A stretch of DNA of 64,000 nt from an uncultured Clostridia bacterium. Lineage in GTDB: Bacteria > Bacillota > Clostridia > TANB77 > CAG-508. The stretch is from positions 4,346 to 68,345 of the forward strand of contig CANRMR010000003.1 of assembly GCA_947631785.1 (NCBI GenBank). Reading direction: 5' to 3'. Shown piece after piece: positions 17,410 through 63,963 of this stretch (positions within the stretch are counted from its first letter, which is position 1; every line of letters begins with the position of its first letter). The position numbers and the translations under genes were made by a program. The notes beneath the pieces were generated by a model. The model saw only the letters and a program-made list of their open reading frames with translations, ran no database searches and was not told the DNA's origin.

Positions 17410-17431
17410 GTAGAGGCGATTTTAATCGCCC
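17410..17431 (+). repeat. REP-like hairpin (stem CGATT/AATCG)
   Basis: GTAGAGGCGATT-TT-AATCGCCC on the plus strand. Confidence 0.8.
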
Positions 17432-17543: not shown

Positions 17544-17566
17544 GGGCGATTAAAATCGCCCCTACA
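17544..17566 (-). repeat. REP-like hairpin (stem CGATT/AATCG)
   Basis: GGGCGATT-AA-AATCGCCC-CTACA on the plus strand, inverted relative to 17410..17431. Confidence 0.8.
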
Positions 17567-21057: not shown

Positions 21058-21121
21058 TTATCATTTCCTCCTATCTATTCTATATTTATTTTTATCTTTA
21101 ATTCAATTCAAACCTAAATTT

Positions 21122-21247
21122 AAATTAAAATTAGAAGCAAGTATAACTAGGCAGTCAAGGCAAAAAATACCGAAGGCGTACGTTGGTACGTCAAGGATTT
21201 TTTGACCGAAGACTAACGACGTTAGACGAAGCTTATAATTTTAATTT
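21122..21247. repeat. Imperfect palindrome A (r-protein-spacer hairpin family, subfamily A/C/F)
   Basis: Outer arms AAATTAAAATTAGAAGC / GCTTATAATTTTAATTT. Inner motifs CAAGTATAACTAGGCA and CTAACGACGTTAGACG. Apex GCGTAC-GTTG-GTACGT. It ends at the rpsG stop codon. Confidence 0.8.
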
Positions 21248-21717
21248 TACCATTTGTAATGAGCAAAAGCCTTATTAGCCTCAGCCATTCTATGTGTATC
21301 TTCTTTCTTTTTGAAAGCTCCACCATTTGAGTTTATAGCATCTATAATTTCACCAGCTAATTTTTCAGCCATAGTTTTTTCATGTCTTTTTCTACTATAA
21401 ATAACAAGCCATCTTAGACCTAAAGTTTGTCTTCTTTCTGGTCTAATCTCTAATGGTACTTGGTATGTTGCACCACCAACTCTTCTTGCTTTAACTTCAA
21501 GAACAGGCATAATATTATTTAATGCTTCTTCAAAAACTTCTAATGGATTTCTTTGTTCTTTTTCCTTTATGATATCAAATGCATCATAAACAATTTTTTG
21601 AGCTACAGATTTTTTACCATCTAACATAATGTTATTAATTAATTTAGTAACAACTTTACTATTATATATTGGATCTGGTAAAACATCTCTTTTGGCTACA
21701 TATCCTTTTCTTGGCAC
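21247..21717 (-). CDS. rpsG: 30S ribosomal protein S7
   Basis: [20 protein letters not shown]...; str-operon synteny. Confidence 0.97.
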
Positions 21718-21860: not shown

Positions 21861-21913
21861 ATCAAAATTTTAAAACATTGAATTTAAATTTTAATTCGAA
21901 CTCGCAATTGCAT

Positions 21914-22042
21914 GGTTGTTCAAAGCAAAAGTGGTATATTGCTAGGAAAACAAGCAAAAAAACTTGAGATAGTACGTTTGTACATCGAAAGTTTTTGTGC
22001 GACGTTTGACAACGCAAGATGCCGCTTTTCATTTGAACAACC
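21914..22042. repeat. Imperfect palindrome B (subfamily B/E/H)
   Basis: Outer arms GGTTGTTCAAA / TTTGAACAACC. Inner motifs TGGTATATTGCTAGG and CGCAAGATGCCG. Apex GTAC-GTTT-GTAC. It abuts the rpsL stop (22042..22044). Confidence 0.8.
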
Positions 22043-22571: not shown

Positions 22572-24548
22572 TTATCTATCTATCCCTTTTCCTTTATTAT
22601 TTATTGCACCTAAACATCTTTCATTCCAATCATCTTTATCTTTATCTTCTCCGCTCATCAATTTTGCAACTGTTTTATTTAATTCTTCTTGATTTATGTC
22701 TTCACTATATTTTTTTAGAACATTTTTCTTTTCGTCTTTTTCATTTTCCACATTAGCATAATTTTCGGAATTATTATTCTTATTAAATATATTTTTAACT
22801 TTCCTTATAATTCTACTAAATATATTATTACTTAATATTTCACCCTCCACTTTAGCATTAATTAATGATTTTGCGTATTTTGCATACTTAGAAATTTTTG
22901 CAACTGTATTTTCATCTGCTTGTGTTAGATCATATTCTATAGACATCTTATCGTTTTTTTGACTATTTTCATTATAATAAAACATTTCAATATATTCACT
23001 TAGCAATTGAGGTTTGTATCGTAATAAATAACATATAGATGGATCTAATTTTCTTTTAAAATTCCACAATTTAAATTTACTCCATGGCTTGTCAAATTCA
23101 GCTTTCTTTATATTGAATAGCTTATCTAACCATTTATTTATATGTAACCCATCATCAATTCTTAAGTTATTTATAATTTCATCTATTCTTCCATCCTTGA
23201 ACATTTTTTTCTTTTCTTTAAGATTTATTTTTACATTTTTTGAATCTTTTAATTCTTTTCCTGTATATAATTTTGTAGCATTTTCTTTTGCATCTACAAC
23301 TATTCTTATTTTTTCATCATTTTTCTTAATTGGTAATGTTTTTTCTTCTTTCTTTTTTGTTGGATTAATAATACTGTTTATACTATTTTTTGGATTTATT
23401 GTTATTTGTGAATTATTGCTGTTTTCATTTTCTGTTCCTTCTGCAATTTGCTTTGCTAATTCTTCATCATCTTGCTCTTGTTCATCTTTTACTTCTTGTT
23501 CGTATTTTTCTTGTTCTTTTCTTTCCTTAGCCTTCTCATTTGCTATTCCTTCTGCAATTTGCTCTTCTTCTCTTTTAGCTTGTGCTTCTTCTCTTCCCTT
23601 TGCCATTTGATTTGCTAATTCTTCTTCATCTTGCTTTTTTGCATCTTCTGCTTCTTTTTCATATTTTTCTTGTTCTTTTCTTTCCTTAGCCTTTTCATTT
23701 GCTATTCCTTCTGCAATTTGCTTTTCTTCTCTTTCTTTTTGAGCATTTTCTCTTCCCTCTGCCATTTGATTTGCTAATTCTTCATCATCTTGCTCTTGTT
23801 CATCTTTTACCTTAGATTTAATTTGTTTATCAATTTCGCCTATTTTAATTTTGAATCTTTTGTAATTTTTTGTTGCATTATTAAACTTTCTTTTTGCTTT
23901 ATTTTCTATATCTTTATTTTCTAATTCAAGTTCATTAATTGTCTCATTTATTTCATTTATTTTATATCTTAATTCTTCCTGTGATGATGTATTTTTGTTG
24001 TTTCCTACTTGATTCATTAATAAGATCTTTTCATTTATTGTATCTATTTTTCTATTTAATCTTTCTATTTTACTATTGTTTGCATTTATTTTTTTATCAT
24101 TTTCTTTATTATGATTTGTTACAAATTCATTATATCTATTATCTATATCCTTATTAACTGTTTCAATTTCTTTAATCTTTTCTTTAATAAATATGTTCTT
24201 TTTTTCATTTATTTTTTGTACTTCTTCTTGTATTTCTTTGTTTTCTCTTTCAATTTTATCTATTGCTAAATCATTGTTTACTATTTTTGTAGTATTATTT
24301 TCTAATAAATTTTTTAATAATTTCTTATTGTTTGCTGATTTTTCAATTCTTCCACTTTCATTACTATATTTATATTTAATAGCTTGGTTTCTTAATTCTT
24401 CATTTTCAGCATTTATTCTTTTTATCTCTTCATTATTTTGATTAATTTTTATTTCACAGTTTTCTATATTTCTTTCAAAATCTTCTATCTGTTTTAAAAC
24501 TTTTTCCTGTATACCTTCTAGTATATTATTTAATTCATTTTCTTCCAT
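22572..24548 (-). CDS. 658-aa K/E/N-rich coiled-coil protein with internal tandem repeats, function unknown
   Basis: Start moved to ATG 24548 (MEENELNN), which has TGGAGG 6 nt upstream. Long heptad-like stretches, with a non-repetitive C-terminal ~230 aa. Confidence 0.6.
   Translation of the reverse strand: MEENELNNILEGIQEKVLKQIEDFERNIENCEIKINQNNEEIKRINAENEELRNQAIKYKYSNESGRIEKSANNKKLLKNLLENNTTKIVNNDLAIDKIERENKEIQEEVQKINEKKNIFIKEKIKEIETVNKDIDNRYNEFVTNHNKENDKKINANNSKIERLNRKIDTINEKILLMNQVGNNKNTSSQEELRYKINEINETINELELENKDIENKAKRKFNNATKNYKRFKIKIGEIDKQIKSKVKDEQEQDDEELANQMAEGRENAQKEREEKQIAEGIANEKAKERKEQEKYEKEAEDAKKQDEEELANQMAKGREEAQAKREEEQIAEGIANEKAKERKEQEKYEQEVKDEQEQDDEELAKQIAEGTENENSNNSQITINPKNSINSIINPTKKKEEKTLPIKKNDEKIRIVVDAKENATKLYTGKELKDSKNVKINLKEKKKMFKDGRIDEIINNLRIDDGLHINKWLDKLFNIKKAEFDKPWSKFKLWNFKRKLDPSICYLLRYKPQLLSEYIEMFYYNENSQKNDKMSIEYDLTQADENTVAKISKYAKYAKSLINAKVEGEILSNNIFSRIIRKVKNIFNKNNNSENYANVENEKDEKKNVLKKYSEDINQEELNKTVAKLMSGEDKDKDDWNERCLGAINNKGKGIDR
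23436..23810. repeat. Intragenic 159-bp (53-aa) tandem repeat, ~2.3 units
   Basis: GCTAATTCTTC recurs at 23455, 23614 and 23773 (period 159). Protein repeat: DEEELANQMA.GRE.AQ..REE.QIAEGIANEKAKERKEQEKYE.E. Confidence 0.85.
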
Positions 24549-24629
24549 ATTATACCTCCATTTTTTCCTACTTCTTATTTTAACATAATAAGTTACATTT
24601 TGCAAGTTTTTTTACATAATTTGATTATT

Positions 24630-35080: not shown

Positions 35081-35225
35081 AATAGTAAAATATAATAAAT
35101 TTGATTATTTTTGCGAGGTGCTTTGTGGGGACCGCCGAATGCTGTTAAACGCGAGTTTAGCGTTGTTACAGCATCGGTGGGGAAGCCTCGAGTAAAAATA
35201 TAAAAATTTATTATATTTTACTATT
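35081..35225. repeat. 145-bp imperfect palindrome J (acpS-tatD spacer)
   Basis: Outer arms AATAGTAAAATATAATAAATTT / AAATTTATTATATTTTACTATT. CGAGG/CCTCG clamp. GTGGGGA occurs in both arms in direct orientation (35125 and 35177). Inner stem CCGAATGCTGT/ACAGCATCGG. Confidence 0.8.
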
Positions 35226-49716: not shown

Positions 49717-49778
49717 TTTTAGCACCTCCTACAAATTTAGGTTTATATTTGGGTTAATTTTTAACACAATTAATTTTT

Positions 49779-49902
49779 AAATTAAATCAAAAACAAGTAG
49801 TACTAGGCAACCGAATGCAAAACATCGGAGGTGTACTTTTGTACATCGAAGATGTTTTGACATGAAGGTTAACGACGTAATACGCAGTTTTTCATTTAAT
49901 TT
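49779..49902. repeat. Imperfect palindrome C (subfamily A/C/F)
   Basis: Outer arms AAATTAAATCAAAAAC / GTTTTTCATTTAATTT. Inner motifs CAAGTAGTACTAGGCAACCGAATGCAAAACATCGGAGGTGTAC-TTTT-GTACATCGAAGATGTTTTGACATGAAGGTTAACGACGTAATACG. It ends at the infA stop. Confidence 0.85.
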
Positions 49903-50120
49903 TATTTGGCACGCCATGTAATACGTCCTCTACTTAAATCATAAGGTGAAAGTTCTACTTTTACTTTGTCTCCTGGTAATATTTTTATATAATTCATTCT
50001 AAGTTTTCCTGAGATATGTGCTAATATTTCATGTCCATTTTCAAGTTTTACTTTAAAATTAGTATTAGGTAAATTTTCTATAACTGTACCTTCTACCTCA
50101 ATCATATCTTCCTTTGACAA
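49902..50120 (-). CDS. infA: Translation initiation factor IF-1
   Basis: 72 aa; [47 protein letters not shown]. Confidence 0.97.
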
Positions 50121-51081: not shown

Positions 51082-51104
51082 GGGCGATTAAAATCGCCCC
51101 TACA
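51082..51104 (-). repeat. REP-like hairpin (stem CGATT/AATCG)
   Basis: GGGCGATT-AA-AATCGCCC-CTACA, ending 2 nt before the adk stop. It forms a doublet with 51026..51055. Confidence 0.8.
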
Positions 51105-53748: not shown

Positions 53749-53759
53749 CTACCCTTCTA

Positions 53760-54276: not shown

Positions 54277-54636
54277 CTAAAATTTTAATCCAGCAGTTCT
54301 TGCTGCTTCAGCTAATTCTTTAACAACACCATGATAGATATATCCTCCTCTATCATATACTACTGTCTTAATATTTTTCTCTATTGCTCTTTTTGCAATT
54401 AATGTTCCAACTTCTTTTGCAGCTTCTTTATTACTGTGTTTTGTTTTTACTTCTTTATCTAATGTAGAAGCTTGCACAAGTGTTTTTCCTTGAGCATCAT
54501 CGATTATTTGAGCATAAATATTTGCATTACTTCTATACACACATAATCTTGGACATTCAGAACTACCACTTATTTTTCTACGAACACGAATATGTCTTCT
54601 TGTTCTTTCAAATTTTCTATCAGTCTTTTTAATCAT
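54277..54636 (-). CDS. rplR: 50S ribosomal protein L18
   Basis: [30 protein letters not shown]. Confidence 0.97.
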
Positions 54637-54707
54637 TTCTTTCTCCTTTCTAAAAAATTAGTTATTATTAAATTAAATTGGTATATTGCTTAATATTTAT
54701 TATAAAA

Positions 54708-54823
54708 ATAATTAAAAGTATTAAGATGTACATTTTCATAAGTTAATCAGGATGATGGCATACTTTTGTATGTTGAATTCTGATTAATGAAATGAAAATG
54801 TGCGAATTGATGCTTTTAATTAT
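54708..54823. repeat. Imperfect palindrome D (divergent member)
   Basis: Outer arms ATAATTAAAAG / CTTTTAATTAT. ACATTTTCAT/ATGAAAATGT and TTAATCAG/CTGATTAA stems. Apex CATAC-TTTT-GTATG. The right end overlaps the rplF stop. An orphan AATTGGTATATTGCT fragment lies just upstream (54676..54690). Confidence 0.75.
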
Positions 54824-55359
54824 TTTTTACCAGCTTTACCCTCTTTACGTCTAATAACCTCATCAGCATATTTAATACCTTTTCCTCTATATACCTCTGG
54901 TGGTCTTTTTGTTCTAATTACAGCAGCTGTTTGACCAACTAATTCTTTATCAATCCCTCTTACTATAATTTGGTTTTGATTTGGAACATCAAATGTAATT
55001 CCTTCTGGTGCTTTCATTTCTACTGGATGAGAATATCCAAGTGTAAGTACTAAATCATTTCCTTTTTTTTGTACTCTATAACCAACACCATTAATTTCTA
55101 ACTCTTTTTTAAATTCGTCTTTTACGCCTATTACCATATTTTTAATTAATGTTCTTGTTAATCCATGTAACGCTTTGTTTTCTGGTTCATCATTTGGTCT
55201 TTTTACTGTAATTACATTATTTTCTACTGCAATATCCATATTTTTATGAAATTCCTTTTCCAATGTTCCCTTTGGACCCGTTACAGTTACCTTTTGACCA
55301 TCCACTTTAACAGTTACACCTTCTGGTACATTAATAGGACTATTTCCTATTCTTGACAT
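54820..55359 (-). CDS. rplF: 50S ribosomal protein L6
   Basis: [31 protein letters not shown]. Confidence 0.97.
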
Positions 55360-55396
55360 TTCTATTTCACCTCTCTATATTTTGTTTTTTTATAAA

Positions 55397-55795
55397 TTAC
55401 CATACATAAGCTAGCACTTCTCCACCTACATTATTTTGTCTTGCTTTTCTATCAGTCATCATACCCTTTGAAGTAGAAACAAGTGCAATTCCTAATCCAT
55501 TTAATACTTTTGGTAATTCCTCTGAACTTGCATAAACTCTTAATCCTGGTTTACTAATTCTTTTTAATCCAGCAATTACTCTATTTCCATTTTCATCGTA
55601 TTTTAAAGTAATTCTAATAATACCTTGCACTCCATCATCAATTTCCTCAAAAGACTTAATATATCCTTCCTCAAATAAAATTTCAGCAATTGACTTTTTC
55701 ATTTTTGATGCTGGAATATCAACTGTTTTATGCTTAGAACTATTTGCATTTCTAATTCTTGTTAACATATCTGCAATTGGATCTGTAATATTCAA
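55397..55795 (-). CDS. rpsH: 30S ribosomal protein S8
   Basis: A TTG start at 55795 gives [17 protein letters not shown], with AAGGAGG 8 nt upstream. The track's ATG at 55816 overlaps that SD. Confidence 0.93.
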
Positions 55796-55846
55796 CTTCT
55801 TTACCTCCTTTTCCATCTGGGTATAGAACCCTATCTCTATTTTTTT

Positions 55847-55969
55847 AAACGAAGCAAAATTGGTATATTGCTAGGCAAAATTAATTTAAAATACCAGAGG
55901 TGTACTTTTTGTACATCGAAGGTTTTTAAATTAATTTTAACGACGCAAGATGCCGATTTTCATTCGTTT
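55847..55969. repeat. Imperfect palindrome E (subfamily B/E/H)
   Basis: AAACGAAGCAAAATTGGTATATTGCTAGGCAAAATTAATTTAAAATACCAGAGGTGTAC-TTTTT-GTACATCGAAGGTTTTTAAATTAATTTTAACGACGCAAGATGCCGATTTTCATTCGTTT. Confidence 0.85.
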
Positions 55970-55974
55970 TAGGT

Positions 55975-56160
55975 TTACCAGCTTGCTTTCTTAACCCCTG
56001 GAATCTCTCCCTTATGAGCTAATTCTCTAAAGCAAACACGGCAAATACCATATTTTCTAATATATGCATGTGGTCTACCACATAATTTACATCTATTATA
56101 TTCTCTAGTCTTATATTTTTGTGGTTTTTGTTGTTTAACAATCATAGACTTTTTAGCCAT
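55975..56160 (-). CDS. rpsN: 30S ribosomal protein S14 (61-aa zinc type)
   Basis: CKLCGRP...CRVCFRE Cys pairs. Confidence 0.96.
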
Positions 56161-56215
56161 AATTTTCTCCTTCCATTTTTATTCATTTAAATATTATTAA
56201 ATTAAAAAACTACTT

Positions 56216-56339
56216 AAAATTAATTAGAAACAAGTATAACTAGGCAACCGAATGCAAAACACCGGAGGTGTACTTTTGTACATCGAGGATGTTTTGACAT
56301 GAAGGTTAACGACGTTAGACGCAGTTTATAATTAATTTT
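56216..56339. repeat. Imperfect palindrome F (subfamily A/C/F; ~94% identical to C over the core)
   Basis: Outer arms AAAATTAATTAGAAAC / GTTTATAATTAATTTT. The core matches copy C with about 6 differences. The right arm overlaps the rplE stop and last two codons. Confidence 0.85.
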
Positions 56340-56871
56340 TAAATGGCATACCCATTAAAGAAAGCAACTCCTTTGCCTCCTCATCAGTATGAGCTGTTGT
56401 AACAAAAATAATATCCATACCTCTTATTTTATCTACTTTATCATATTCAATTTCTGGGAAAATTAATTGTTCTTTAACTCCCATTGAGTAATTTCCTCTT
56501 CCATCAAAAGAGTTAAAAGAAACTCCTCTAAAATCCCTTACTCTTGGAAGTGCTACATTAAATAATTTGTATGCAAATTCATACATTTTTTTGTCTCTTA
56601 ATGTTACTTTACATCCAACATGAGCACCTTCTCTTAATTTAAAAGCTGCAATTGATTTTCTTGCTTTTGTAATAACTGGTTTTTGTCCAGTAATTATAGA
56701 TAAGTCATTAACTGCATTTTCTAATGATTTTGGATTATCTTTAACATCTCCTAAACCAATATTAATTACTATTTTTTCAAGTTTTGGAACTTGCATTATA
56801 GATTTATAATTAAATTTTTTCATTAATGCTGGAACGACTTCTTTATTATATTGTTCTCTTAGCTTTTCCAT
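56332..56871 (-). CDS. rplE: 50S ribosomal protein L5
   Basis: [39 protein letters not shown]. Confidence 0.97.
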
Positions 56872-56899
56872 AGAAATGCTATTCCTCCTTTCATTATTA

Positions 56900-57208
56900 C
56901 TACTTTAATTTAGTTGCGCATCTTTTACAAACACGTACTTTTTTATCTTTATCCATTTCATAACCTATTCTAGCTGGTTTGTTACATTTTGGGCATATAA
57001 CATTAACTTTACTTGCATGAATTGCACATTCTACTGGTATAATGCCTCCTTCTTCTCCTTGCTTTCTAGGTTTTACATGTCTTTTTCTAATATTAACACC
57101 TTTTACAATTATTTTTTCAGTTTTTGGTATTACCTCTAATACTTCTCCTTTTTTACCTTTGTCATTTCCAGATAAAACTTGAACAGTATCACCTTTTTTT
57201 ATCTTCAT
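56900..57208 (-). CDS. rplX: 50S ribosomal protein L24
   Basis: [26 protein letters not shown] motif, plus CPKC...CKRC Cys pairs. Confidence 0.96.
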
Positions 57209-57259
57209 ATTTTCTATCTCACCTCTTTAATTTAAAATATTACCAAAAATATGCTTTTT

Positions 57260-57297
57260 CTAAAACGATGAAAAATGCCGATTTTCATTCGTTTTAG
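57260..57297. repeat. Palindrome G: 38-nt internally deleted derivative of the B/E/H subfamily
   Basis: CTAAAACGATGAAAA-ATGCCG-ATTTTCATTCGTTTTAG. The right half is identical to the right end of E (ATGCCGATTTTCATTCGTTTTAG). Confidence 0.7.
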
Positions 57298-57298
57298 T

Positions 57299-57667
57299 TT
57301 AAAGAACTTCTGGAGCAAGTGAAAGAATTTTCATATACTCTCCATCTCTTAGTTCTCTTGCTACTGGGCCAAAAATACGTGTTCCTCTTGGTGTTTTATC
57401 ATCACGTATAATTACGGCCGCATTTTCGTCAAATCTTATATATGAACCATCTGGACGTCTTGTAGGTTTTTTTGTTCTAACAACAACTGCTTTAACAACT
57501 TCACCTTTTTTTACAACGCCTCCTGGTGTAGCACTTTTAACAGAAGCAACTATAATATCTCCTATTTTAGCATATCTTCTATAAGATCCACCTAAACAAC
57601 GAATACACATAATTTCTTTTGCTCCTGTGTTATCTGCAACTTTTAATATTGATTGTTGTTGTACCAT
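57299..57667 (-). CDS. rplN: 50S ribosomal protein L14
   Basis: [23 protein letters not shown]. Confidence 0.97.
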
Positions 57668-57688
57668 CTGGCTATTCCTCCTTTTAAT

Positions 57689-57952
57689 TTATTTAATCAC
57701 TGCTTTTTCAAGTATTTCCACAACTCTCCATCTTTTATCTTTAGATAGTGGACGTGTTTCCATTACTTTTACTTTATCTCCTATTTGGCAAGCATTTTCT
57801 TCATCATGAGCTTTTAATTTATATGTTCTTTTTACAATTTTGTCATACATTTTATGTTTTACACTTGTTTCAACTGATACTACTACTGTTTTGTCCATTT
57901 TATTTGATGTAACAGTACCAATCATAACTTTACGAAGATTTCTTTCTTCCAT
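57689..57952 (-). CDS. rpsQ: 30S ribosomal protein S17
   Basis: [39 protein letters not shown]. Confidence 0.97.
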
Positions 57953-58003
57953 GAATTTTTTTCTCCTTTCTTATTTTAGAAAAATATTCTACTAAATCTA
58001 TTA

Positions 58004-58127
58004 GAACGAATTAGAATTAGTATATTGCTAGGCAAAATTAATTTAAAATACCGGAGGTGTACTTTGTGTACATCGAGGATTTTTAAATTAATTTTAACGA
58101 CGCAAGATGCTGATTCTAATTTGTTTG
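58004..58127. repeat. Imperfect palindrome H (subfamily B/E/H)
   Basis: GAACGAATTAGAATTAGTATATTGCTAGGCAAAATTAATTTAAAATACCGGAGGTGTAC-TTTGT-GTACATCGAGGATTTTTAAATTAATTTTAACGACGCAAGATGCTGATTCTAATTTGTTTG. The right arm covers the rpmC stop and last ~3 codons. Confidence 0.85.
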
Positions 58128-58322
58128 TTCCTCTATTTCTCTTTGTCTTAATACAGTCTTCACTCTTGCAATATCTTTTTTAACTTCTTTTATTCTCATT
58201 GGATTATCTAGGCTATTTGTTGCTAGACTAAATCTTAATTTGAATAATTCTGTTTTTAATTCGCTTAGTTCTTTTTCTAAATCTGGTGAAGACATTTCTT
58301 TTATTTTATCTATCTTCATCAT
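58116..58322 (-). CDS. rpmC: 50S ribosomal protein L29
   Basis: [31 protein letters not shown]. Start uncertain (58331, 58322 or 58319). Overlaps the rplP 3' end. Confidence 0.93.
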
Positions 58323-60936: not shown

Positions 60937-61006
60937 AAAATTAATTAAAATCTTCGCATTACTTTATTACTTTTAATTTTTGTGCTGCTTGTTTTTAATT
61001 AATTTT
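60937..61006. repeat. 70-bp AT-rich palindrome L in the rplW-rplB spacer
   Basis: AAAATTAATTAAAA ... TTTTAATTAATTTT outer arms, with imperfect inner arms TCTTCGCATTAC / GTGCTGCTTG. Confidence 0.5.
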
Positions 61007-62682: not shown

Positions 62683-62706
62683 TTTTATTTTTCCTCCTAA
62701 CTATTG

Positions 62707-62782
62707 GCTGATTATTTAGATGATAAAATTTAAGTATTAAAATTTCTTAAATTCTTAAATATAAAATATCTAATTTATCAGC
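62707..62782. repeat. 76-bp AT-rich imperfect palindrome K in the rpsJ-rplC spacer
   Basis: GCTGATTATTTAGATG... / ...ATATCTAATTTATCAGC outer arms. It is followed by an AAATTTAAAATT x2 direct repeat. Confidence 0.5.
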
Positions 62783-62830
62783 TTGGTTTTTGATTTTAAA
62801 AAATTTTTAAATTTAAAATTAAATTTAAAA

Positions 62831-63428: not shown

Positions 63429-63469
63429 CAGCTTTTTTAATTTTTTGTAATAATTTTGCTATATAATGT

Positions 63470-63496
63470 GTAGGGGCGATTTTAATCGCCCGCTAC
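63470..63496 (+). repeat. REP-like hairpin (stem CGATT/AATCG) adjacent to the RAYT gene
   Basis: GTAGGGGCGATT-TT-AATCGCCC-GCTAC, 14 nt from the RAYT stop codon. Confidence 0.85.
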
Positions 63497-63509: not shown

Positions 63510-63963
63510 CTAACAATATTTATCTTTTTTCCAATTAATTATATTATTTTTTATATATTCTTTTATCTTTAAATATTCTTTTTCATTTCTTATTATGTGT
63601 TCATAAAATGACTTTTGCCAGATTGAATATGTTAGTTTTCTACTTACATTTGTTTTATAATGTTTTATTATCGTTGAAAGTGTTACATCCTTTTTGTATA
63701 ATACTAAAACTAAAATATGTATATGGTTAGGCATTATTATATATTCATCTATTATAATATTATCATATATTTCTGTTATTTTATCTATATATTGTTTTGA
63801 TATTTCTCCTTCCTTTGTTAATTCTATTTTATTATCTTTTGTTATTTTTCCTAATATCTCTACTCTATTTTTTATACATAATGTAATAAAATACATGTTT
63901 TCTTTTGAATAGTCATAATTTTCTAGTCTTATTTTTTTTTCGTTGTGGTAATTTTTCTTTCAT
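63510..63963 (-). CDS. REP-associated tyrosine transposase (RAYT; IS200-like Y1/HUH), N-terminus displaced by +1 in an A9 run
   Basis: HUH motif in IIMPNHIHILV. IWQKSFYEHIIRNEKEYLKIKEYIKNNIINW resembles the RayT C-terminal Tyr region. ATG 63963 (MKEKLPQRKK) joins RLENYDYSKENMYFITLC only if the A9 run at 63932..63940 is read as A8. ORF-track core is 63510..63896. Confidence 0.75.

Follow-up and report, generated by a model that had tools for sequence, protein, structure and literature searches.

What are the long hairpins that lie between the ribosomal-protein genes of an uncultured gut Clostridia bacterium, and whose structure are they: that of the operon mRNA, or one of their own? The DNA in question is a 64-kb stretch of contig CANRMR010000003.1, called the window throughout. 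It has ~27% G+C, carries nearly all of its genes on the minus strand, and shows a negative GC skew of the plus strand over its whole length. An earlier note on this stretch had described eight imperfect palindromes in the spacers of its translation operons, all in one orientation, and had offered insertions resembling MITEs, RNase III or stability elements, and an antisense-encoded RNA as explanations. We find that they are members of a family of hairpin repeats that is real, widespread and, it appears, undescribed, and that on the best reading resembles REPIN or ERIC elements in kind. On balance we favour a non-autonomous mobile hairpin whose folded single strand would be recognised by a trans-acting enzyme and which is retained after stop codons, mostly antisense to the genes, a reading that we hold with modest confidence.

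Hairpins in the ribosomal-protein operons

The window was scanned with an inverted-repeat tool and, filters off, with a covariance model (CM) built from a MAFFT/RNAalifold alignment of copies from other genomes and five window copies, with copy B excluded from the seed. Seven full-length hairpins of 116-129 nt were recovered where they had been described, all on the plus strand and antisense to the genes (Table 1). By sequence, fold and CM, each of the eight original intervals holds a hairpin of the described kind, D being of a second core type and G consisting of arms only. Pfam confirms the gene names by which the spacers are known, for S12, S7, EF-G and EF-Tu, for IF-1, L36 and S13, and for the S10-spc cluster from S10 to L18. 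At the sites of A, B, C, E, F and H the CM scores 15-36 bits on the reverse strand.

Copy D carries a continuous G-U-rich helix in place of the CUAGGCA/AACGACG loop found in the other copies, while its apex and outer arms are as in the rest of the family. The same core type occurs at four loci of other genomes (L023, L058, L131 and L002). Beside D stands the leftover 5' arm of an older E-type copy, which, read from the sequence, points to stacked insertions next to the stop codon. The final 21 nt of the remnant G are identical to the 3' end of E; either G arose from an E-type copy by internal deletion, or it is the footprint left when such a copy was excised. The outer arm of H encodes the final four codons and the stop codon of rpmC (L29).

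The original list missed a ninth copy, which is decayed and occupies the rplW/rplB spacer on the minus strand. It retains its outer arms and has 19 nt in place of the core. The CM scan of the 64-kb window found no copy in any further spacer.

A single hairpin with a conserved, covarying build

Every full copy folds as a single long hairpin. Relative to 200 dinucleotide shuffles per copy, of which 0 fold as well, the z-scores range from -6.0 to -8.7 for the mRNA strand and from -7.2 to -11.5 for the plus strand. The proposal might have failed, as the earlier note allowed, by arms pairing no better than shuffled sequence; with z between -6 and -11.5 they pair far better.

Read from the outside in on the plus strand of the window, the element opens with an A-rich/T-rich closing stem, in which ..TTGAAAAAGAA.. 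is paired with ..TTATTTTTCAA... There follows a short 4-bp stem that covaries among copies (UAAC/GUUA, UUGC/GCAA, UAC/GUA), with a fixed A.G mismatch outside it, and then a conserved internal loop of CUAGGCA opposite AACGACG (CUA-G-GC / AA-C-GAC). Beyond the loop come a 4-bp stem, a freely varying A/U-rich stem and CC/GG, then a purine loop of GGA opposite GAG (or AGA/GAA), and finally the apical stem GGYGUAC-loop-GUACRUC, which contains a G.U pair and closes on a variable loop of 4-5 nt. The apex had been given as a conserved GTAC-TTTT-GTAC. Its GTAC/GTAC stem is indeed conserved, but its loop is not (TTTT, GTTG, TTTGT). The purine-purine oppositions noted in the inner part do exist, but they go together with G-U pairs on the plus strand, antisense to the ribosomal-protein mRNA.

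Covariation was assessed on 82 non-redundant copies aligned with MAFFT, an alignment not fitted to structure, for which RNAalifold gives 32 pairs. Double compensatory changes occur at 24 of these 32. In the alignment 92% of cells are paired compared with 68% in shuffles (0/500 reach the observed value), and the covariation score is 0.58 against 0.16 in shuffles, falling to <=0.20 when the 3' partners are slid by 1-3 columns. The outermost stems vary from copy to copy with their pairing preserved. The apical stem was set by the pattern used for searching (see below) and is on its own uninformative; in the 30 listed copies that lack the exact pattern (27 from other genomes, the others being B, D and a truncated copy) a wobble or Watson-Crick pair is nonetheless kept at the apical position. 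The internal loops are all purine-rich on one strand (64% purine).

Two further readings of the sequence were rejected. Compared by hand with the consensus rules, the loops are neither K-turns nor loop-E motifs: GGA/GAG is a 3x2 purine loop, and CUAGGC/AACGAC has no GA.AG next to the stem. A mini-open reading frame on the mRNA strand, MK(S/I/N)..LRR and a stop, is present in some copies (E, C, L023 and L049) but absent from A, F, H and the commonest subfamily.

The better-folding strand is the element's own

Among the full copies of the window the lower minimum free energy (MFE) is always on the plus strand. The plus strand folds better because the G-U pairs fall there (9 compared with 0 on the minus strand in D, 5 compared with 1 in H) and because the internal loops are purine/purine there and pyrimidine/pyrimidine on the mRNA strand. 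The same holds for the family at large. The strand of the model is the better folder in 77/81 copies antisense to their neighbours, 14/16 sense copies and 27/27 copies in mixed context, by a mean of ~9 kcal/mol, and also in 30/30 of the listed copies without the exact pattern. The asymmetry is unchanged under DNA energy parameters. Since the advantage of the model strand does not depend on the direction of the host genes, the optimised fold is the element's own and not that of the mRNA. Such an asymmetry fits a folded single strand, either single-stranded DNA or a transcript of the model strand, as the unit that is recognised.

Distribution beyond the window

A core search pattern, CTAGGNA..GGNGTAC..GTACRTCRA, has five matches in the window, all on the plus strand, where 0 are expected. 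In a collection of species-representative genomes it picks out >115 stretches among the matches listed, which come from at least ~60 assemblies of several phyla, and the CM applied to the fetched loci gives 135 + 43 matches. Far from being confined to this stretch, a possibility that the earlier note had entertained, the family has >130 more members by pattern and CM in at least ~60 species-level genomes. Most carriers belong to the uncultured Clostridia of the gut, with humans, rabbits, chickens, goats and mice as hosts. The family is also found in Negativicutes (Phascolarctobacterium, Massilibacillus), in Candidatus Formimonas and Treponema, and in one metagenome-assembled genome (MAG) each of Thermodesulfobacteriota and Thermoanaerobaculia. 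GC-rich copies are numerous in one Carboxydocellales MAG, and Paenibacillus has a divergent relative of the element that lies beyond the reach of the CM.

Two blastn queries against a plasmid collection in distant mode returned no match, and the sole pattern match in viral contigs was discarded as a chance one inside a coding region. Rfam 15 has 0 matches in the whole window at gathering thresholds and nothing relevant on 54600-58250 at E<=10; for eight loci with GC-rich or divergent copies or pattern matches, Rfam at E<=0.1 places nothing on the elements. No tRNA falls on the hairpins. A literature search by topic and by sequence string found no description of the hairpin family.

Placement between operon genes

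Neighbouring genes were taken from a simple caller of open reading frames (ORFs), and the counts refer to copies for which both neighbours were called (n=108). Of these, 82 are antisense to both neighbours, 17 are sense to both and 9 are mixed, so that the flanking genes are co-directional at 99/108 copies (92%) and ~80% of copies lie antisense. At one end the hairpin touches or overlaps the stop codon of the upstream gene, whose ORF frequently terminates within the outer arm; the other end lies ~20-40 nt ahead of the next start codon. Nowhere else in a short operon spacer could an insertion leave the stop codon and the ribosome-binding site both intact.

Ten representatives of the recurrent flanking clusters were examined with Pfam, and all are housekeeping genes. 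Among these neighbours are ribosomal-protein operons, rpoB/rpoC, fusA, adk/map, era, pheT, relA, acetyl-CoA carboxylase, Fe-hydrogenase and ABC transporters. In genomes other than that of the window, the majority of copies are located outside ribosomal-protein operons. No transposase turned up among the flanking genes that recur across loci, to whose ten representatives the Pfam scan was confined. The clean copies are flanked by no direct duplication of a target site and by no conserved tetranucleotide.

Selection against having the stronger RNA hairpin in a sense mRNA can account for the preference for antisense placement. It could instead reflect a benefit, namely a block on antisense transcription. 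In these genomes GC skew coincides with coding-strand bias, and a replication-linked insertion rule is inseparable here from gene direction.

Evidence for movement, turnover and decay

Copies of one subfamily (group V) are 83-96% identical at loci whose flanks are unrelated, both within and between genomes. Closely related strains also differ in which sites are filled. With an identical S7 protein and ~99% identical flanking coding sequence, L002 is without copy B, and at site A L002 and L004 have another core type with the same apex and compensated outer arms. Site D is empty in L122 (36 nt). At site E, relatives with an identical S14 have another model-matching variant (L125) or a D-type copy (L131); L122 has a 110-nt spacer with no CM match, and L085 and L119 have short spacers of 14-23 nt. 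Site F is empty (~20 nt) in L122, L131, L034, L085 and L119 and sense-filled in L022, L055 and L114.

A matrix of ribosomal-protein spacers in ~20 related genomes gives the same picture of presence and absence. The rplW/rplB spacer is sense-filled in all of them, with a full copy in every one examined. The rpmC/rpsQ and rplE/rpsN spacers are empty (17-25 nt), antisense-filled or sense-filled among members of the clade, and rpoB/rpoC is filled in opposite orientations in different genomes. Never filled are rplD/rplW, rpsC/rplP, rplP/rpmC and rplO/secY, where genes overlap or are separated by a few nucleotides.

Decay takes the form of arm-only hairpins (G, and rpmC/rpsQ of L055), half copies and stacked copies. 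Strain variants of H (L132, L134, L135, L137 and L138; window 58056-58085) differ on the 3' side of the apex, GACACCTAAAG as against GTACATCGAGG, and the altered apex is a perfect complement of its own 5' side. The rewriting looks like a template switch within the hairpin, in which one arm may have been recopied from the other. The MAG BRZ_CN bin24 (L100, L037, L080, L095) has tandem 5'-arm fragments in units of ~64 nt that end in ..AATTTTGGCTAGG, and half copies stacked beside full ones. In the Carboxydocellales MAG, solo 3'-arm fragments flank full copies (L039, L043, L108, L113).

An autonomous parent, with its arms split by a gene, was looked for among these forms and rejected: there are only half and stacked copies, with no gene between arms. 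We also considered whether the outer arms are copied from the target. The arm of copy F next to rplE (AAAATTAATT, with the stop codon; 56332-56345) is present in the empty site of L122 as well (1470-1500), and this match to pre-existing sequence could be junction microhomology or coincidence in AT-rich DNA. Copying from the target does not fit H, E and G, whose arms plainly belong to the element.

Constraint on copies in place

Across species, orthologous copies equal or exceed the flanking coding DNA in conservation, for example at 92-99% identity for elements and 62-95% for flanks. An orthologue of copy H is present in L034, a rabbit-gut MAG with ribosomal proteins ~80-93% identical to those of the window. 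The L29 ORF stops before the arm in L034, whereas in the window it runs into the arm and ends there. In the orthologous sets the stems vary much less than the unpaired columns, and the changes at paired positions comprise 36 compensated on both sides, 21 to G.U, 13 to A.C and 18 other mismatches. The compensated changes and the low variation of the stems therefore indicate that the hairpin is maintained after insertion. Had the spacers simply carried vertically conserved leaders, the case for a repeat would have been weakened. Some copies are in fact orthologous and conserved at least like their flanks, but presence/absence differences and replacement of one type by another are frequent.

Other features of the window

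The window also holds a RAYT gene (63510-63896, minus strand; region 63510-63963), which encodes an IS200-like Y1 transposase (Pfam Y1_Tnp, PF01797) with HUH and Tyr motifs and lies directly upstream of the S10 operon promoter. A REP is by definition a short GC-rich hairpin whose foot has a GTAG/GTGG tetranucleotide 0-2 nt on its 5' side, and REP families are lineage-specific (PMC6006769). The RAYT gene is flanked on both sides by inverted copies of a 28-nt repeat, TGTAGGGGCGATTTTAATCGCCC, that has the GTAG/GTGG feature; this REP is also present in the adk/map spacer and as an inverted pair downstream of tuf (Table 1). The REP/RAYT system of the window is genuine and separate from the long hairpins. 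As a candidate for their mobiliser the window's RAYT was rejected: it is flanked by the other repeat, the nearest long hairpin is >5 kb away and no homologue lies near other copies, none being found within the 115 loci that hold long hairpins.

The RAYT frame reaches an upstream ATG, and with it its natural N-terminus (MKEKLPQRKK/KIRLENYDYS...), only through a one-base shift in an A9 run at ~63925-63940. The same run is found in an independent assembly (L139 1987-1995), and it therefore marks a real frameshift or pseudogene, or slippage-dependent expression.

Several other observations concern the spacers and their surroundings. Two minus-strand genes are separated by an unrelated 145-nt imperfect palindrome (GCGAGGTGCTTTGTGGGGACCGCCGAATGCTG...; 35081-35225), AT-rich in its arms and GC-rich at its centre, that has no match to the hairpin family or to Rfam. 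The rpsJ/rplC spacer, unusually long at 148 nt, holds a long AT-rich hairpin of different sequence (62699-62788); in L118 and L022 the same spacer has a sense-oriented family copy. The rpsE/rplO spacer (53749-53759) is 11 nt long and has no L30 gene (rpmD), and it is likewise short, 29-44 nt, in L034, L085 and L021. Directly upstream of rpsL, where many Firmicutes have rpoC or ybxF, an ORF of 677 aa (22572-24605, minus strand) has no Pfam match at E<=1e-4.

Table 1. Hairpins, hairpin remains and short repeats located in this work. Positions are those of the window unless a locus is named. MFE values are in kcal/mol.
Feature	Position	Strand	Context	Evidence and remarks
Copy A	21117..21249	+	rpsG/fusA spacer, antisense	CM 114.5 bits; MFE -41.8 (+) vs -33.9 (-)
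Copy B	21911..22042	+	rpsL/rpsG spacer	Apex variant GATaGTAC..GTACATC; CM 86.2 bits, outside seed alignment
Copy C	49773..49905	+	infA/rpmJ spacer	CM 119.3 bits; flanking genes verified with Pfam
Leftover 5' arm (AAATTAAATTGGTATATTGCTTAAT) of older E-type copy	54670..54694	+	Beside D	Sequence reading, comparison with E
Copy D	54708..54823	+	rplF/rplR spacer	Second core type; CM 22 bits; MFE -51.6 (+) vs -26.9 (-)
Copy E	55840..55973	+	rpsN/rpsH spacer	CM 109.8 bits
Copy F	56210..56342	+	rplE/rpsN spacer	CM 124.9 bits
G	57260..57297	.	rplN/rplX spacer	Strand unassigned; 38-nt hairpin, outer arms of E-type copy only
Copy H	57997..58130	+	rpmC/rpsQ spacer	CM 115.8 bits; MFE -52.1 (+) vs -31.4 (-)
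Decayed copy	60939..61004	- (sense orientation)	rplW/rplB spacer	CM 21 bits on - strand; fold
28-nt REP TGTAGGGGCGATTTTAATCGCCCG(C/T)TAC	63468-63495, 51083-51098, 17415-17430, 17545-17560; L139 1880-1907			

Comparison with known repeats

Because the family has the look of several short repeats of bacteria, we compared its features with theirs. It shares with REPINs and BIMEs the status of non-autonomous intergenic hairpins of ~100 nt in many copies, with compensatory pairing, no target duplication and long persistence within lineages, and a single-strand fold is the presumed substrate in both. Unlike these, the long hairpins have no conserved 5' tetranucleotide, their foot is an A/T-rich stem, they are not made of two short REP palindromes, and their core is common to several phyla.

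The nearest analogue in behaviour is ERIC, or IRU, an imperfect palindrome of ~127 bp in transcribed spacers inside or alongside operons. ERIC elements are present or absent at orthologous sites, have a conserved structure, and their mobiliser is not known. The hairpins are not known to resemble ERIC in sequence, no ERIC sequence having been compared here. ERIC differs in its hosts, which are enterobacteria and not anaerobic Firmicutes and others, and the hairpin family has in addition a strong strand asymmetry and orientation bias.

Of the explanations first offered for these hairpins, insertion in the manner of MITEs comes closest to the evidence, with abundant copies, empty sites, both orientations and near-identical copies at unrelated loci. 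Bacterial MITEs have fixed terminal inverted repeats that are read by a DDE transposase, and they leave a target duplication such as TA. Here the likeness ends: no target-site duplication was found, and in place of fixed inverted repeats the element has ends that covary as the two sides of a stem, such that the outermost 5-9 bp of near-identical copies differ yet stay complementary. Correia/NEMIS elements are also short, have inverted-repeat ends, lie in transcribed intergenic DNA and form hairpins in mRNA. PATEs, derived from IS200/IS605, have separate end hairpins of 20-25 nt, insert 3' of a fixed tetra- or pentanucleotide and have their active strand on the lagging-strand template. The present element is one long hairpin, in contrast, with no conserved flanking tetranucleotide. 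The MIRUs of mycobacteria are direct tandem units with small ORFs whose ends touch neighbouring stop and start codons; they too occupy spacers inside operons but, unlike the present element, are not known as hairpins. A ribosomal-protein leader has a fixed sense position before one gene, is inherited vertically and occurs nowhere else in the genome; most copies of the hairpin are antisense, in spacers that vary among relatives.

Discussion

How could such a family arise and persist? Our results are consistent with non-autonomous repeats of ~120-135 nt that spread, or have spread, to new sites within genomes and between lineages. The copied unit would most likely be one self-folded strand of DNA, or possibly of RNA, and an enzyme supplied in trans may read the conserved loops and the apex, by analogy with HUH/Y1 transposases acting on REP/REPIN and IS200/IS605 hairpins. 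Copies would survive mainly between the upstream stop codon and the next ribosome-binding site, the permissive slot of tightly packed operons. Antisense placement would be preferred there, the mRNA version of the hairpin being ~9 kcal/mol weaker. Once inserted, copies could persist across species with their pairing intact, lose their core and become arm-only hairpins, or be overlaid or replaced by relatives. In this account the data establish membership of the family, the fold and its covariation, the strand asymmetry, dispersal, presence and absence, the context and the orientation bias, whereas the single-strand intermediate, the enzyme acting in trans and selection as the source of the bias are inferred.

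Several observations weigh against a mobile hairpin of this kind. No mobilising enzyme was found, and the one Y1 transposase of the window is flanked by a different, short REP. No insertion or excision was seen at single-nucleotide resolution, the cleanest pairs of empty and filled sites differing beyond the hairpin. The better-folding strand is the C-rich strand, antisense to genes, in 80/81 antisense copies and is probably the leading-strand template. The active strand of single-strand transposons of the IS608 type is reportedly on the lagging-strand template, and the location found here would run opposite to that rule, GC skew being confounded with coding-strand bias. The same conserved housekeeping spacers are hit repeatedly, which suggests targeting or function over random insertion. 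The conservation of orthologous copies, whose stems vary less than their loops, agrees no less with a function for the host than with an element that is purely selfish, and the strand asymmetry of changes in place is weak, with 21 substitutions to G.U and 13 to A.C among orthologues.

A bolder version seems rather doubtful to us. The hairpins might constitute a new cross-phylum class of hairpin replicator, with the purine-rich loops and the G.U apex as the handle of its enzyme, that is directed to the stop-codon side of spacers in active operons. If this were true, insertion would be coupled to transcription, translation or replication of those operons, and it could also mean that the host keeps the element as a strand-specific barrier to antisense transcription.

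That the element is domesticated, or useful primarily to the host, is unlikely in our view. It could then act on the antisense strand, for example as a one-way barrier or terminator against spurious antisense transcription. The plus strand would form a strong hairpin followed by UUAUUUUU, and the mRNA strand a weaker hairpin that sense transcription passes. Such a role is in keeping with the ~80% of copies that are antisense to flanking genes, with enrichment in the operons of translation and transcription (ribosomal proteins, rpoB/rpoC, fusA, era, pheT), with an antisense-strand fold that is ~9 kcal/mol stronger, and with orthologous copies that are conserved at least like the flanking genes and have compensated stems. 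The closing stem also pairs an A-run with a T-run, as bidirectional terminators do. An intrinsic terminator consists of a short GC-rich stem followed by a U-tract. In the hairpins the T-run on the 3' side is itself paired, with the A-run on the 5' side, and the only features flagged by a simple scan for terminators are the apices of E and H on the plus strand. A terminator has no need of conserved internal loops or of a core that is near-identical across phyla, and sense copies are fixed in rplW/rplB of every related genome, ahead of the rplB ribosome-binding site.

Alternatively, the plus strand could give rise to a multi-copy family of small structured RNAs. These would act in trans, or would bind and titrate some conserved protein by means of their purine-rich loops and of two GGA motifs, one on either side of the apex. 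Strand-specific asymmetry, an apical G.U pair or its wobble or Watson-Crick substitute that is kept without the search pattern, internal loops that are all purine-rich on one strand (64% purine), loop sequences conserved across phyla and covariation of the kind seen in functional RNAs all speak for it. We consider this explanation less likely still. No conserved promoter-like element was found in or beside the copies, most of which are buried antisense within operons. Copy number, half copies, footprints and presence/absence are those of a repeat and not of a gene, and DNA parameters give the same asymmetry as RNA parameters.

Cis signals in the polycistronic mRNA, whether RNase III sites, decay barriers or translational coupling, are very unlikely as the reason for the structure, although the hairpins are co-transcribed with the operons, directly after stops and 20-40 nt before the next start, and the mRNA-strand hairpin is still stable (z -6 to -8.7). 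It is possible, judging by sequence, that CCUCC-like motifs on the mRNA strand of antisense copies pair with the downstream Shine-Dalgarno. The idea of an RNase III or stability element, put forward in the earlier note, does not agree with a better strand that is antisense in ~80% of copies and independent of gene direction. The optimised structure is on the element's own strand regardless of the direction of the mRNA, the mRNA strand has A.C mismatches and pyrimidine loops, and relatives that share an operon may have a given spacer of it empty or filled in one orientation or the other.

Finally, it hardly comes into question that the hairpins are recombination sites like integron attC, which work as a folded single strand and would mark the boundaries of genes. 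The attC sites, such as the Vibrio cholerae repeats, have conserved RYYYAAC / GTTRRRY boxes with an invariant GTT crossover triplet, and the hairpins resemble them as imperfect palindromes of 60-140 nt right after stop codons, conserved in structure more than in sequence, with one active strand that is mostly antisense to genes like attC bottom strands; but only A and F, with GTATAAC...GTTAGAC at the R-box position, recall the boxes, the AAC/GTT triplet lacks conservation (TTGC/GCAA, TAC/GTA or GGC/GCC stands there in most copies), the flanks are core housekeeping genes in conserved order and not cassettes, and no integrase is nearby.

The mobile hairpin, with the qualifications above, is therefore the reading that we carry forward. 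If confirmed, a widespread and well-defined family would join the short list of bacterial hairpin repeats (REP/REPIN, ERIC, Correia). The literature searched described no such element for uncultured gut Clostridia, Negativicutes and some spirochaetes, and the family would give a concrete handle toward a new single-strand-processing enzyme. For annotation, the copies lengthen the spacers of the most conserved operons and can alter gene ends, as they do for L29, whose final four codons they supply. Closely related gut strains can usefully be told apart by whether a copy is present and which way it points. Lastly, the orientation bias and the long conservation in ribosomal-protein and RNA-polymerase operons make an effect of the repeat on expression, or on the suppression of antisense transcription, directly testable.

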